Translations under genes and position numbers: made by a program
Shown here: positions 6,967 to 58,376 of the stretch, piece by piece
Position numbering within the stretch: position 1 is the first letter of the stretch
How the letters are laid out: every line of letters begins with the position of its first letter
Source of the DNA: Candidatus Micrarchaeota archaeon
GTDB lineage: Archaea; Micrarchaeota; Micrarchaeia; Anstonellales; Anstonellaceae
Reading direction: 5' to 3'
Assembly: GCA_964650545.1 (NCBI GenBank)
Contig: CAZYTZ010000001.1
Location: forward strand, 23,686-87,685
DNA: 64,000 nt
Notes under the pieces: generated by a model
Database searches by the model: none
Seen by the model: the letters and a program-made list of their open reading frames with translations, nothing else
What the model was told of the DNA's origin: nothing

Positions 6967-7067
6967 CCTTCACGTCTGAATGGGGAAGGCAAAATCCTCT
7001 GGGATTTTGCCATCTTCGTCGTGCCCGCAGGCACGACGTCTACCGAAAACCTGCGGGTTTTCGCTAT

Positions 7068-7259
7068 GGGCCCGTGGCGCAGTGGTAGCGCGCCTGCTTT
7101 GCAGAACCCTTTTGCTCGCTCCAGATGGGGACGCTCGCAAAAGCGTTCACGGAAAACGCAAATGGGTTTCAAAAAAGCAGGAGGCCGGGGGTTCGAAGGA
7201 CCTTTTTCGGGATGCCTAAAAAGCTCCGCCAAAAAGGGCTGAAATTCCCCCCGGGTCCA
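7068..7259 (+). tRNA. tRNA-Ala (anticodon UGC) with two introns: one in the anticodon loop (about 7104-7175, after position 37) and one in the T-loop (about 7198-7245, between positions 59 and 60).
   Basis: Manual fold. The acceptor GGGCCCG pairs with CGGGTCC, giving the G3:U70 alanine identity pair, and the discriminator is A73. The D-arm is GCGC-AGTGGTA-GCGC. The anticodon stem is CCTGC/GCAGG with loop TTTGCA...A. The T-arm is GGGGG-TTCGAA[intron]T-CCCCC. CCA is not encoded, and a T-run follows. Confidence 0.65.
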
Positions 7260-24168: not shown

Positions 24169-24230
24169 ACTCCCGCGCAAATCATGGCGGCAGATGATGA
24201 GCATTACGACTCTGACTTGTGATGACGTGA

Positions 24231-24245
24231 CTTGACTCTGATGCC
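24231..24245 (+). repeat. Copy 1 of the exact 15-mer CTTGACTCTGATGCC, which is also found at 29217 and 32488.
   Basis: It is an exact sequence match. A gactctga half-copy lies 26 nt upstream. Confidence 0.6.
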
Positions 24246-34587: not shown

Positions 34588-34662
34588 CCCTTTAAGCCAT
34601 TCTTTTTTATATCCATGTTGTGCTGGCGCACAACATCTATAAAAAAGCAAACAAAGGTTGCT

Positions 34663-34696: not shown

Positions 34697-34770
34697 GGCC
34701 AAGGTGATGTAGCCTGGTAGCATGGGAGCTTGTGGAGCTCTTCGCCCGAGTTCAAATCTCGGCTTTGGCC
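34697..34770 (+). tRNA. tRNA-His (anticodon GUG), without introns and with a genome-encoded G-1.
   Basis: Manual fold. G-1 precedes the acceptor GCCAAGG, which pairs with CTTTGGC, and the discriminator is C73. The D-arm is ATGT-AGCCTGGTA-GCAT. The anticodon stem is GGAGC/GCTCT with loop TTGTGGA. The T-arm is CCGAG-TTCAAAT-CTCGG. Confidence 0.8.
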
Positions 34771-34827
34771 CTATTATTTTCCTTCCGCGCAGATACTCTC
34801 TTAAATTTCACCCGCGAATTATTCCAC

Positions 34828-54604: not shown

Positions 54605-54731
54605 CGCCTCGGACAGGACTTGAACCTGTGACCTATGGATCGCTGCCGCGCACGTGCGCGATAACAGTCCATCGCTCTACCTTTCAGTCTCACGAGGACC
54701 GTCCCTCATGAAAAGACTGAGCTACCGAGGC
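54605..54731 (-). tRNA. tRNA-Asn (anticodon GUU) with two introns: about 34 nt in the D-loop (plus-strand 54682-54715) and about 21 nt in the anticodon loop (plus-strand 54642-54662).
   Basis: Manual fold of the reverse complement. The acceptor is GCCTCGG/CCGAGGC with discriminator G73. The D-stem is GCTC/GAGC with loop AGT[intron]GGTA. The anticodon stem is ATGGA/TCCAT with loop CTGTTA[intron]. The T-arm is ACAGG-TTCAAGT-CCTGT. Both introns contain self-complementary segments (AGTCT...AGACT, CGCGCAC/GTGCGCG). Confidence 0.65.
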
Positions 54732-54759
54732 AAATTTTCGCCAAATGCTGCGCATTTGA

Positions 54760-55110
54760 CGATCTTCGTTGGGCGTTGCCCAACGTCTCGCAGTTTTCGC
54801 TTCGCGAAAACTACGATGCCACTGGCCAGCAAACAACCCGAAGTTCAATTCATTTTTCCCTTCGGGGTTCGTGCCATAACGTTTCCAGACCACTTTTGAC
54901 CTATACTGTCTTTTATCTGAAACCATGCCTGTGGCTTCCCCCTTTTGCTGCGATGGTTATTAAAAACTGCGGTTTTCGCCCTGGCAGGTTATTTTGTTGA
55001 AAAATGGCACGGAGCCGTACTTTCCTGCTGCACGAAGATTCCTATTGCAGCTTCACGCAACTTAACTTAGATTAAGCAAATCCCGATTCTGCTTAATCAG
55101 GCTGCAACGC
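54760..55110. ncRNA. Candidate structured noncoding RNA or long tRNA-Asn leader; identity unknown.
   Basis: It spans about 350 nt without a credible ORF. It contains several perfect hairpins (CGTTGGGC-GTT-GCCCAACG, TTTTCGC-TTC-GCGAAAA, CCC-TTCG-GGG, GATTAAGCA...TGCTTAATC) and a long-range complement (CGTGCCAT / ATGGCACG). Confidence 0.2.
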
Positions 55111-55155
55111 AACCATTATAAATTATACATATCAAAAGTATCGTTAAGCGATACT

Positions 55156-55968
55156 ATGAAGATACAGAAATCGATGCGTTTCGGCGAGCAGGAGGTAAAA
55201 CTGCTCTTCGCGCTTGAACAGGGAAAGAGCCCCGTTTTCACGATAGCGCAAGCGCGCAAGGCGCTTGGGACGACTGACGCCTCGGTCAAGAACGTCCTTT
55301 CACGCCTGAAGAGGAAGAAGCGCGTCATTCCTTTGCAGCGTGGGGTTTACCTGTTTGCGCCCCTCAAAAGCGGGCAGGAAGGGCAATGGACTGAAAATGC
55401 TTTTTCTGTTGTGCCTTACCTCGCTGGAACTGGCAAATATTATATCGGATTTGCCGCTGCGATGAACTATTGGGGCATGACAGAGCAGCTGCCCCTGACA
55501 GTGGGCATTGCGATGGAGAGGCAAAAAAAGCCCGTAAGCGCAGTACAGTCGAAATTTGTATTCGTGGCAAAAAAGCGCCTCGGGGATTATGAAAAAATCT
55601 CCATAGCGGGCACGAATGTCAACATCTCTTCGGTTGAGCAGACTGTGCTTGATGCGCTGGCTTTCCCCGAATACTGCAACGGGATTGAGGGGGCGGCCAA
55701 GGCGGTTTGGAGCGCAAGAAATAGCATTGACTGGAAGAAGCTCTCTTTGCTTGCGAAGGCAGGGAAAGGCGCGGTGCGGCAAAGGCTGGGCTATCTGCTC
55801 GAATTGCTGGGGCTGGAAAAGCGCGCAAAAGCAATTGAGGGCAAGTTTGCCGGCTTTTCCTGGCTTGCCCCCAATGCCCAAAAAGCGGAATTCCAATACT
55901 CGAAGAGGTGGGGCTTAAAGATTAACCTGAAAAAAGAGGATGTGCTTGAATTCCAGAGGGGATACTGA
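55156..55968 (+). CDS. AbiEi-family antitoxin-like wHTH protein.
   Basis: The N-terminal pattern LSRLKRKKRVIPLQRGVYLFAP matches the AbiEi N-domain. It lies immediately upstream of the AbiEii gene and overlaps its start. Confidence 0.55.
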   Translation: MKIQKSMRFGEQEVKLLFALEQGKSPVFTIAQARKALGTTDASVKNVLSRLKRKKRVIPLQRGVYLFAPLKSGQEGQWTENAFSVVPYLAGTGKYYIGFAAAMNYWGMTEQLPLTVGIAMERQKKPVSAVQSKFVFVAKKRLGDYEKISIAGTNVNISSVEQTVLDALAFPEYCNGIEGAAKAVWSARNSIDWKKLSLLAKAGKGAVRQRLGYLLELLGLEKRAKAIEGKFAGFSWLAPNAQKAEFQYSKRWGLKINLKKEDVLEFQRGY

Positions 55969-56726
55969 TGGATTTGACTGAATTGAGGAAAAGGGCGATG
56001 AAGGAAGGCATACCTCTGGCAATAATGGAGAAGGATTACGCGCTTTCCGTTGTGCTTCTTGAATTGTCAAAGACTGCCCTGAAGGGCAATTCCTTGTTCA
56101 AGGGTGGCACGGCAATAAAGAAAGTCTATTTTCCAAATGCAAGGTTTTCCGAAGATTTGGATTTCACTGCGCCGAATATGAAACAGGATGAAATAACGCA
56201 CGCGCTGAAAACCATGCTTGAAAACAAGGAGATTCTTGGCATCCGGTTTGGCACCCTTGAGCACGAGAAGACGGGCGCAGGGCTTCGGCTGTCAGTCAAA
56301 TTCTCAGGGTTCCTTGAGCAGCCACAGAGGATACGCTTTGACTTCAGCTTCAGGGAAAATGCAGTCTTGCCGCCTGTTGAAAAAGAAGTGATTGACAGCT
56401 ATTCGCTTGGCAAGGCAGGCATACGGACCTTGCAGGTGGAAGAATTGCTTGCCGAGAAAATCCAGGCGGCATTTTCGCGCACGGTTGCAAGGGACCTGTA
56501 CGACATTTGGTTCCTGCTGAACAACGGCGTCAAATTGGATGTCGCGCTTATCCGCAGGAAATTCGCGTATTACAACGAAAAATACGAACCGGAAAAGCTG
56601 GAAGGCAGGCTCAATGGCTTCAAGCTGAAATGGAATCAGGATTTGGGGCAGTTCCTGAAAGAGGTGCCTGCATTCGAAATGGTCGGAGCGGACGTGCTGA
56701 AGCAACTTTTAGGGCAAAGAGGATGA
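55968..56726 (+). CDS. AbiEii/AbiGii-family nucleotidyltransferase toxin (DUF1814).
   Basis: It has LFKGGTAIKKVYFPNARFSEDLDF, the canonical GGTAL...RFSEDLDF motif. Confidence 0.65.
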   Translation: MDLTELRKRAMKEGIPLAIMEKDYALSVVLLELSKTALKGNSLFKGGTAIKKVYFPNARFSEDLDFTAPNMKQDEITHALKTMLENKEILGIRFGTLEHEKTGAGLRLSVKFSGFLEQPQRIRFDFSFRENAVLPPVEKEVIDSYSLGKAGIRTLQVEELLAEKIQAAFSRTVARDLYDIWFLLNNGVKLDVALIRRKFAYYNEKYEPEKLEGRLNGFKLKWNQDLGQFLKEVPAFEMVGADVLKQLLGQRG

Positions 56727-56730
56727 GAAT

Positions 56731-57231
56731 TTGAACGGAACTTCGCTGAAACTGACGATAGAACTCGTGCCGTCCACCTCCTGGTGGAAAAGCCTCAGGG
56801 CAAAGATGCCAAAGGATGAATGGGATGCGATTAGAAAAAGCGCATACGCAAGGTTTGGATACCGGTGCGCGATCTGCAATTCAAAGGGCAGGATGCACTG
56901 CCACGGGGTTTGGGAATTCGATGATGCAAGGCACGTCCAGAAATTGAAGGATTTCATTGCGCTCTGCGAGATGTGCCATTATGTCAAGCACATCGGCCTT
57001 GCAAGTGTCAAGGCGTCGGAAGGGGAGTTGGATTACAACGAGGTTGTAAAGCACTTTTTGAAGGTGAATGGCTGCGACATGCGGGCTTTTGAAAAGCACA
57101 AGGATGCTGCATTTTCCAGATGGCAGGAGCGCTCCAGTCATGAATGGAGAGTGGATGCGAGTGTGTATGAAAAGCTGCGAAGCGCGATGCTTGATAAAAA
57201 GCAGCACAGGCTGTTTGAGGAGAGCTTATGA
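56731..57231 (+). CDS. Cys/His-rich HNH-like nuclease-fold protein (166 aa).
   Basis: It has CAICNSKGRMHCHGVWEFDD...CEMCHYVKH, a CxxC...HxH...CxxCH pattern. It starts with TTG, and its stop overlaps the next gene's ATG. Confidence 0.4.
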   Translation: MNGTSLKLTIELVPSTSWWKSLRAKMPKDEWDAIRKSAYARFGYRCAICNSKGRMHCHGVWEFDDARHVQKLKDFIALCEMCHYVKHIGLASVKASEGELDYNEVVKHFLKVNGCDMRAFEKHKDAAFSRWQERSSHEWRVDASVYEKLRSAMLDKKQHRLFEESL

Positions 57232-58217
57232 AGAAGCTGGAGGGGATGACGCGCGAGGATGTGCGAAAGCTTGTCGACTACAAGATATTCGAGCGCGGAG
57301 TCGAGTACTTTGCAGAAGGGCATGTGATTGAGCCATCTGTTTCCGGCAATAAAATCATGGCTGAGGTTGAGGGTTCGTCATACCAGAATTACAGGACTTC
57401 TGTTGAACTCGCCAATGGGCAACTGGAATGCAAATGCGACTGCCCGTATGATTGGGGAACCTGCAAGCACGTGATTGCGCTGCTTCTTCATTGGGTAAAG
57501 GAAAAGGATGATTTTGAAGACCTTGGCCACGTTGCCGAGAAGATGGAAAAGATGCCGCGCGAGGATTTGCTGAAGATTCTGAGGCGCTTTGCCAAGGATG
57601 AGCCGCAAAGATTCGTCGAAATTGTTGATTTGGCGCTGGTGGGCGAAATAGCTGACGAAACAAAGGCACTGGACTTCGTCACGAAGGCTAAGAATATCCT
57701 TAGAAATGGCGATGACCGCAGAATTTCCGATGTTGTGAGGAGAGTGATCATCATTCATGAGCAAGCCCTTGGTCGCTTTAAGAGCGATGGAGCGAACTAT
57801 GCTGCTGGCCAGCTGTTCAGAATCGCTTGCGCCTTTCTTGACGCACCTTGGGTTTGCGAGGATTCGAAAGGCGAGGGCATCGGGCTGGTTTCGGAATTGC
57901 TTGACGATGTGCGGTTGATATGGATGAACCACAAAATTTCTAAGAAGGTGAAGAAGGAAATCCTGGATGAGACCTGGAAAATAATAAATGCCGACACAAC
58001 GCTCTTGACCGATTCTTTTGACGACTTTTTCGAAAGCACATGCAAGGGCGAATGGGAACGGAAAATCATGCGAAAGCCAATAATCCAGCGATTGGTTCGG
58101 CTAGAAGAACTTGAAAATAGGGGGCGGCAGTACAAGTCGTATAGGTATGAGCAAACGCTTCACTTTGCACGGAAGTTCGGTTACATCAGCCAAAAGGGAG
58201 TTTACATCCAAGATTAA
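57228..58217 (+). CDS. SWIM zinc-finger domain protein (329 aa).
   Basis: It has the CxCx(n)CxH SWIM signature (CKCDCPYDWGTCKHVIALLL). Confidence 0.55.
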   Translation: MKKLEGMTREDVRKLVDYKIFERGVEYFAEGHVIEPSVSGNKIMAEVEGSSYQNYRTSVELANGQLECKCDCPYDWGTCKHVIALLLHWVKEKDDFEDLGHVAEKMEKMPREDLLKILRRFAKDEPQRFVEIVDLALVGEIADETKALDFVTKAKNILRNGDDRRISDVVRRVIIIHEQALGRFKSDGANYAAGQLFRIACAFLDAPWVCEDSKGEGIGLVSELLDDVRLIWMNHKISKKVKKEILDETWKIINADTTLLTDSFDDFFESTCKGEWERKIMRKPIIQRLVRLEELENRGRQYKSYRYEQTLHFARKFGYISQKGVYIQD

Positions 58218-58301
58218 TGCCTCAAGCCCCTCTGAAATCCATCATGTGTGCTTTTTATCGCCTTTCATTTCTTAATGTGGTATTAAATGTATACTCGTGA
58301 A

Positions 58302-58376
58302 TGCCACTGGCCGGATTTGAACCAGCAACACATCGGTCTTCAGCCGATTGCTCTCCCAGGTTGAGCTACAGTGGCG
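58302..58376 (-). tRNA. tRNA-Phe (anticodon GAA), without introns.
   Basis: Manual fold of the reverse complement. The acceptor is GCCACTG/CAGTGGC with discriminator A73. The D-arm is GCTC-AACCTGGGA-GAGC. The anticodon stem is ATCGG/CCGAT with loop CTGAAGA. The T-arm is GCTGG-TTCAAAT-CCGGC. Confidence 0.85.

Follow-up and report, generated by a model that had tools for sequence, protein, structure and literature searches.

A probably functional tRNA-Asn(GUU) gene with two BHB-type introns in an uncultured Micrarchaeia archaeon

The closest described counterpart of the gene reported here is found in ARMAN-2 (Candidatus Micrarchaeum acidiphilum), a member of the same phylum-level lineage, Micrarchaeota. 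According to the main text of Fujishima et al. 2011 (PMC3239211), 56% of the tRNA genes of ARMAN-2 are disrupted, some of them by more than one intron; strict hBHBh' and relaxed motifs both occur, the ε2 splicing endonuclease (EndA) of this organism cleaves strict as well as relaxed BHBs in vitro, and introns at 59/60, in the T-loop, interrupt tRNA-Cys and tRNA-Pro. Enzymes of the ε2 and (αβ)2 types cleave introns outside the anticodon loop, and Mancarchaeum has the same ε2 endonuclease type (Kaneta et al. 2018, PMC5829648). In the Thermoproteales/Crenarchaeota, up to three BHB introns have been described per gene, D-arm positions included (Sugahara et al. 2007, 2008; PMC4090602). The known D-arm insertion sites include 20/21, 22/23 and 25/26, and tRNA-Pro(UGG) of Pyrobaculum islandicum has introns at 25/26, 37/38 and 56/57 (reviewed in PMC4090602). 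Similar introns recur there in different tRNAs, which has been read as transposition (PMC4090602). An interruption of another kind is that of the tRNA-Asn and tRNA-Asp genes of Patescibacteria by group I introns (PMC13011429), where, as here, an insertion hides tRNA-Asn from standard annotation in an ultrasmall, episymbiont-type organism.

We have analysed a 64-kb stretch of DNA (the window, to which all coordinates refer) from an uncultured Micrarchaeia (DPANN) archaeon, and we are highly confident that one locus in it is a probably functional gene, and probably the only gene, for tRNA-Asn(GUU), made of three exons and two BHB-spliced introns. It resembles ARMAN-2 in that standard tRNA finders miss the disrupted genes, and in that a 59/60 T-loop intron is present, in this case in the tRNA-Ala gene of the window. 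ARMAN-2 comes from acid mine drainage, whereas the present gene and its relatives belong to Micrarchaeia genomes and metagenomes from neutral environments. A 17/18 intron in tRNA-Asn, such as the D-loop intron found here, is not mentioned in the main text of Fujishima et al. 2011 (PMC3239211), supplementary tables aside. Unlike the mixture of motifs in ARMAN-2, the strict BHBs of both introns do not in themselves require a broad-specificity enzyme, and the gene alone tells nothing about the breadth of enzyme specificity. With the Thermoproteales it shares a BHB formed by intron-exon pairing at the cost of the cloverleaf, and introns that are present or absent among close relatives; the Thermoproteales differ in belonging to another archaeal superphylum and in having an (αβ)2-type endonuclease. 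The second intron is a textbook 37/38 strict BHB of the Thompson and Daniels model in the nomenclature of Marck and Grosjean 2003 (both cited in PMC4090602). The gene is thus an ordinary archaeal two-intron tRNA-Asn and, interrupted tRNA genes being already known in Micrarchaeota, no surprise to the specialist; it leaves the knowledge of tRNA splicing unchanged.

The gene lies at 54605..54731 on the minus strand and runs for 127 nt from G1 to the discriminator G73. From 54731 to 54605 it reads GCCTCGG-TA-GCTC-AGTC[33 nt]GGTA-GAGC-G-ATGGA-CTGTTA[21 nt]A-TCCAT-AGGTC-ACAGG-TTCAAGT-CCTGT-CCGAGGC-G. The acceptor stem GCCTCGG/CCGAGGC pairs at 7/7 positions, and the T-arm (ACAGG-TTCAAGT-CCTGT), the D-stem (GCTC/GAGC), the anticodon stem (ATGGA/TCCAT) and the anticodon loop (CTGTTA..A) are intact. 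Exon 1 (positions 1-17; 54715..54731, minus strand) holds the acceptor 5' strand, U8, A9, the D-stem 5' strand GCUC and the D-loop bases A14 G15 U16 C17. It is followed by a D-loop intron of 33 nt between C17 and G18 (54682..54714, minus; nt 18-50 of the pre-tRNA; UUUUCAUGAGGGACGGUCCUCGUGAGACUGAAA). Exon 2 (positions 18-37; 54662..54681, minus) contains G18 G19 U20 A21, the D-stem 3' strand, G26, the anticodon-stem 5' strand and C32 U33 G34 U35 U36 A37, with the anticodon GTT at 54663-54665 (minus), which ARAGORN gives as gtt. The canonical 37/38 intron of 21 nt (54641..54661, minus; pre-tRNA nt 71-91; UCGCGCACGUGCGCGGCAGCG) separates it from exon 3 (positions 38-73; 54605..54640, minus), which comprises A38, the anticodon-stem 3' strand, the variable loop AGGUC, the T-arm, the acceptor 3' strand and G73. 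The exons are thus 17, 20 and 36 nt long. CCA is absent from the gene, the bases directly after G73 being CTG.

The initial annotation, which was made from the letters and their open reading frames, had proposed a minus-strand tRNA-Asn(GUU) of this extent with an intact cloverleaf and G73, interrupted by one intron in the D-loop and another in the anticodon loop. The sequence, the ARAGORN call and the minimum-energy fold agree on the tRNA, and each intron was found in a strict hBHBh' motif; the lack of a BHB at the junctions, which would have spoken against the proposal, was thus not what the scan showed. The intron placed after position 37, estimated at about 21 nt, is exactly 21 nt long at 37/38. 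The D-loop insert, which had been put at about 34 nt between AGT and GGTA, stands as an insert, while its length is 33 nt and its 5' boundary lies one base away, at C17|G18. The AGT|GGTA junction yields a 72-nt product that ARAGORN still calls tRNA-Asn(gtt), yet it is one base off the junction defined by orthologues.

We defined a strict BHB as a central helix of 4 nt followed on each strand by a 3-nt bulge, cut after the second bulge base; in the central helix, exon bases pair with the intron's 3' end. We searched the 127-nt precursor exhaustively for such 3-4-3 motifs, requiring 2 bp or more in each flanking helix, and obtained four matches, corresponding to introns 71-91, 18-50, 19-49 and 25-52. 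In the first of these, the canonical intron, the 5-bp anticodon stem serves as outer helix, C32U33G34U35 pairs with GCAG as central helix, the bulges are U36 A37|U and C G|A38, and the inner helix CGCGC/GCGCG (5 bp) is closed by the loop ACGU. In the second, the D-intron, U12C13A14G15 pairs with C45U46G47A48, the bulges are U16 C17|U18 and A49 A50|G51, and the inner helix is 11 bp long (19-29 with 34-44). Its outer helix of 2 bp (C11-G52 and G10-U53) is the allowed minimum and is present in 20/20 orthologues, with one GU to GC change. The match for intron 25-52 is weak (inner helix of 2 bp, outer of 3 bp) and was set aside. A strict BHB with a long inner helix also turned up in 14% of shuffles of the locus sequence and is not rare alone; the weight of the argument therefore lies in position, product and conservation.

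Removal of both introns leaves a 73-nt RNA that ARAGORN calls tRNA-Asn(gtt) and whose minimum-energy fold is exactly the cloverleaf (-27.9 kcal/mol). The exon junctions of the spliced RNA are GCUCAGUC|GGUAGAGC and CUGUUA|AUCCAU (GCTCAGTC|GGTAGAGC and CTGTTA|ATCCAT as DNA), and the mature D-loop is the 8-nt AGUCGGUA. As read from the sequence, this product has U8, A14, G15/C48, G18G19, A21, G26, U33, A37, G53-C61 and U54U55C56. The identity elements for AsnRS are the anticodon G34 U35 U36 and the discriminator G73; reading the sequence, we find all of these, with A37 after U36.

The unspliced locus is poorly seen by standard tools. ARAGORN, run by default or with its intron option (-i0,120), reported no tRNA-Asn at the locus, its only matches in the window being tRNA-His (34698-34771) and tRNA-Phe (58302-58375, minus); this is a limit of the tool and not evidence against the gene. 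The Rfam tRNA model (RF00005) scored the raw locus at 29.7 bits, against a gathering score of 29, with the exon 3 half cleanly aligned and the 5' half misaligned. This match, at 54606-54697, is misleading, the acceptor 5' strand being falsely placed at CCUCGUG within the D-intron. The sole detectable tRNA-Asn at this conserved locus thus escapes ARAGORN, while Rfam picks it up only just and misaligned, and because both fail on the locus, genomes of this group will seem to be without a tRNA-Asn unless splice-aware prediction is used.

Other classes of insert do not fit these sequences. Group I introns have a ribozyme core (P3-P8) and are typically longer than 200 nt, those of Patescibacteria being hundreds of nucleotides long. 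The Patescibacteria introns are bacterial self-splicing ribozymes; in contrast, neither a ribozyme core nor an Rfam intron match is seen in the inserts here, which measure 33 and 21 nt and carry BHB signals for a protein enzyme. A C/D box guide RNA, of the kind found in the tRNA-Trp intron of Haloferax, has C (RUGAUGA) and D (CUGA) boxes and a guide of 10-12 nt; the 33-nt intron lacks a C box and is too short to accommodate a guide, its CUGA is the strand paired with exon UCAG, and no Rfam snoRNA model matched the locus at E values up to 10. Nor did the Rfam search point to any other functional RNA within the two introns.

Folded as a whole, the 127-nt precursor reaches -61 kcal/mol (z-score -5.56; 0/200 shuffles were equally stable) and keeps its acceptor and T arms. 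In this minimum-energy fold the D-arm adopts a register (helix 12-17 with 43-48, with a UUU bulge) for which the BHB cutting rule would give a 12-nt D-loop. We rejected it, since pair 16-44 is broken in 4/20 orthologues and the D-intron-free orthologues fix the junction elsewhere. The complementarity AGTCT...AGACT, originally described as internal to the intron, turned out to be largely exon-intron pairing and part of the minimum-energy register; the register that permits splicing retains only two of its pairs, A14-U46 and G15-C45, which make up half of the 4-bp central helix. The conformer carrying both BHBs lies at -50.7 kcal/mol versus -61.0 kcal/mol for the minimum-energy fold of the whole precursor, and is 3-5 kcal/mol worse for each arm alone. 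Such an energy gap is usual for bulged motifs, the enzyme being assumed to stabilise the fold. Thermodynamic folding alone would have missed the correct register of the D-intron.

The boundaries of the D-intron follow from comparison with relatives. Among the tRNA-Asn genes with the same anticodon stem, those of genome loci L014, L015, L032, L036 and L052 and of many metagenome contigs have the D-loop insert, and a metagenome scan with a pattern specific for the D-intron added 21 loci. The D-intron is cleanly absent from L011, L017, L049 and L061, where the D-loop reads AGTCGGTA; these D-intron-free orthologues, together with the strict BHB, set the 3' boundary of exon 1. As tRNA genes they score 65.9-66.3 bits (L011, L017 and L061) and 66.8 bits (L049, with 2 exon differences) in the Rfam tRNA model. 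Set against the spliced exons of its syntenic orthologues from Micrarchaeia genomes and metagenomes, the 73-nt product shows 0/73 differences for more than 17 of them, the D-uninterrupted L011, L017 and L061 being among those with 73/73 identical exons, while the introns of orthologues with identical exons are 3-10 substitutions apart and also vary in length. Between L014 and L017 neither the exons nor the canonical intron differ, and the sole difference is the D-intron, which is therefore a clean indel, its junction fixed at C17|G18.

We aligned 20 distinct orthologous D-region sequences on this register. In the alignment, 90.9% of the cells are paired and compensatory changes are seen at 9/11 pairs of the inner helix, with 25 double-change cells; 0/500 shuffles matched this pairing, and slid registers were 27-50% paired. 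The four central-helix pairs are invariant and hence uninformative on covariation, and the pairs that are diagnostic of the register, 19-44 and 20-43, are paired in 20/20 sequences, including a UA to CG double change. The canonical intron keeps the same architecture across orthologues, at lengths of 19-27 nt, with a U-U mismatch in the central helix of some of them.

The same alignment bears on a cut one base further in on each side, by which an intron of 31 nt (19-49) would be removed to leave a 75-nt tRNA with a 10-nt D-loop, AGUCUAGGUA, and the exon junction GCTCAGTCT|AGGTAGAGC. The window sequence allows a strict 3-4-3 BHB in this register too, with an outer helix of 3 bp and an inner helix of 10 bp, and the 75-nt product passes as tRNA-Asn in ARAGORN. 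Pair 16-44 of the shifted central helix, however, is broken (C opposite A) in 4/20 orthologues, whereas the 18-50 register holds in 20/20, and the two bases it leaves over, columns 18 and 52, vary freely (U/A and A/C/G), unlike all other exon positions, which are invariant in close orthologues. The D-intron-free orthologues, moreover, have the 8-nt D-loop AGUCGGUA and not one of 10 nt. We consider the 19-49 cut improbable and keep to removal of nt 18-50.

Retention of the 33-nt insert as an extra hairpin, with only the 37/38 intron removed, would give an expanded D-arm. The insert does form a stable hairpin of 9-11 bp that could protrude from the D-loop. The exact 3-4-3 bulge geometry that it keeps, and its CUGA paired with exon UCAG, would nevertheless be needless in an inert protrusion, and retention would part G18G19 from A14-C17 and disrupt the D-stem. 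Close orthologues with identical exons do without the insert, and relatives bear comparable inserts elsewhere, in the T-loop of L068 and at apparently three places in L010, which points to diversity of splice sites and not to structural expansion. Retention thus appears very improbable, and excision of both introns is the reading that we follow.

The failure of standard finders on this locus, and the integrated island directly upstream of it, a sign of mobile DNA active nearby, would also suit a decaying pseudogene inactivated by insertion into the D-loop. Against this stand the exons, 73/73 identical across many lineages whose enolases are only 67-87% identical, which argues for strong purifying selection, and the structure of the insert, conserved in 20 distinct sequences. 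The locus is, in addition, the syntenic tRNA-Asn position in all relatives, and the identical 127-nt gene is carried by 6 independent metagenome contigs. Decay of the gene is accordingly hard to credit, and we regard a functional tRNA-Asn with two introns as the far better account.

On the established archaeal pathway (PMC4090602, PMC5829648), from which cleavage, ligation and end maturation are inferred, expression of the gene would proceed as follows. Transcription would yield a precursor with a structured leader, and on folding each insert would present a strict BHB, that is, two 3-nt bulges on opposite strands with a 4-bp exon-intron helix between them. The archaeal tRNA splicing endonuclease EndA would cut the D-intron at C17|U and A|G18 and the canonical intron at A37|U and G|A38. 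An RtcB-type ligase would then join the exons, and RNase P and tRNase Z would trim the ends. CCA would be supplied by the CCA-adding enzyme, because the gene does not encode it. The D-arm is predicted to form only after excision of the D-intron, since the BHB ties up U12 and C13 of the D-stem in pairs with the intron. No match to the Pfam families of the tRNA intron endonuclease (EndA) was found among the 28 ORFs scanned in the 64-kb window.

Gene order around the locus, followed by local tblastn, is kept across loci as IleRS, enolase, p136, p106, tRNA-Asn, (tRNA-Phe), Trm1, and judged by this order the loci are true orthologues. The window also encodes the archaeal housekeeping genes aRF1, RLI/ABCE1, RFC, CysRS, IleRS and Trm1. 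In a neighbour-joining tree built from this one gene, enolase, and lacking support values, the D-intron-free loci with a complete enolase (L017 and L049) fall separately in a clade whose other members all bear the D-intron. The tree is suggestive of two or more precise losses of the D-intron, and the distribution resembles that of an old intron that has been lost precisely, not of one gained recently. The D-intron spans three different acceptor stems: distant members with the acceptor stems GCCCTGG and GCCCCGA have the same D-intron, with a very different inner-helix sequence.

Other arrangements were met in tRNA-Asn genes. The D-intron occurs without the canonical intron in L067, and L068 has inserts in the D-loop and in the T-loop, the latter lying within T-loop sequence and seen as an insert only. 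The 167-nt gene of L010 (Micrarchaeota) apparently has three inserts, as does the 163-nt gene of L037, from an unclassified archaeon. The further insert configurations seen in DPANN tRNA-Asn genes, L029, L035 and L053 among them, include long 37/38 introns of 60-84 nt in Altiarchaeota.

The first four inner-helix pairs of the D-intron (U-A, U-G, U-A or C-G, and C-G) and the bulge base A49 are nearly invariant, which exceeds what BHB geometry needs. This near-invariance and a D-stem blocked until excision are hints of a retained function. That the 17/18 intron is old, has been vertically inherited in a broad Micrarchaeia clade and has perhaps been retained for a function is, taken as a whole, a proposition that we hold to be unlikely, if not negligibly so. 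Were it true, the D-intron might enforce an order of maturation or modification, or act as a specific determinant for the endonuclease of the lineage, and its apparent precise losses, at least two in number, would be informative on how introns of this kind disappear. The comparative set, with 20 D-intron variants, four syntenic D-intron-free orthologues and variants with one, two and apparently three inserts, supplies exact splice junctions and is a clean natural series for the precise loss of BHB introns.

The tRNA-Asn gene had been noted as the second multi-intron tRNA of the window, and this is borne out by tRNA-Ala(TGC), at 7068-7259 on the plus strand, where G3 pairs with U70 and two introns are again present. 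Of the four tRNA genes identified in the window, two are thus interrupted twice. The inference drawn earlier of a lineage with pervasive non-canonical tRNA introns fits its placement in Micrarchaeia and the data published for ARMAN-2 in the main text of PMC3239211. The first tRNA-Ala intron, of 72 nt at 37/38 (7104-7175, plus), has a strict BHB. The second, of 48 nt at 59/60 in the T-loop (7198-7245, plus), was partly read by hand: its central helix pairs UUCG with UGAA, the bulges are AA|G and AU|U, and there is one A-G mismatch in the inner helix. This gene was missed by ARAGORN and by Rfam at its gathering threshold; a scan for T-arm and acceptor stem missed it as well, owing to the T-loop intron, and a motif search found it.

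The D-intron of tRNA-Asn and the T-loop intron of tRNA-Ala both end in CUGAAA, and we considered whether the two are homologous. The shared ends are no evidence for intron transposition because each is forced by pairing to its own exon, UCAG in one case and UUCG in the other, and no convincing similarity between the tRNA-Asn D-intron and the tRNA-Ala introns was found beyond these pairing-forced ends (CUGA/UGAA). This differs from the Thermoproteales, with their similar introns in different tRNAs.

Three tandem hairpins lie in the presumed 5' leader of tRNA-Asn, directly upstream of the gene on the minus strand at 54738-54816 (54738-54762, 54767-54785 and 54788-54816), as seen from inverted repeats and folds, and this stretch is orthologous to the spacer between tRNA-Phe and tRNA-Asn of the relatives. 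Each hairpin module is about 26-28 nt long, with a stem of 8-11 bp, a loop of 3-5 nt and short GA/AGAU linkers; besides the three at tRNA-Asn there are three directly upstream of tRNA-Ala (6988-7063, plus) and one directly upstream of tRNA-His (34615-34636, plus). The window has 16 perfect hairpins whose stems reach 8 bp or more, versus about 2 in shuffles. The orthologous spacers (L011, L014, L017, L032, L049, L062, L064, L066, L070, L072, L075-L077 and L080) apparently hold from 1 to about 7 modules of differing sequence, whose stems are kept by compensatory changes, including those of the module adjoining tRNA-Asn.

In relatives without the island mentioned above, tRNA-Phe is directly upstream of this spacer. 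In the window this ancestral partner is now 3.5 kb off, beyond an inserted island of 3.5 kb (about 54835-58301) that lies between tRNA-Phe (58302-58375, minus) and a degenerate copy of the tRNA-Phe 3' end (54817-54834, minus). The copy adjoins the tRNA-Asn leader, reads TTGCTGG..CCAGTGGCA and is missing 11 nt. The island encodes AbiEi (55156-55968), AbiEii (55968-56726), a 166-aa ORF (56731-57231) and a SWIM-finger protein (57228-58217), and no integrase was recognised in its 3.5 kb. Its proteins are 91-98% identical to those of L036 and L072, whereas the core genes compared on the flanks of these two loci show 68-84% identity, which suggests a recently mobile element integrated into tRNA-Phe.

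In L015/L063, L071 and L076, the last 11-16 nt of tRNA-Asn (e.g. TCCTGTCCGAGGCG) are repeated about 60-70 nt downstream, past one or two hairpins, and these repeats may be what an integration at tRNA-Asn left behind, as att-like remnants; a tRNA-Asn 3'-end repeat of this kind is absent from the window. Elsewhere in the window, a candidate archaeal C/D-box sRNA was detected at 24189-24243 (plus), with matches to the Rfam families sR1, sR5, sR3 and snoPyro_CD at 25-30 bits, under their gathering scores.
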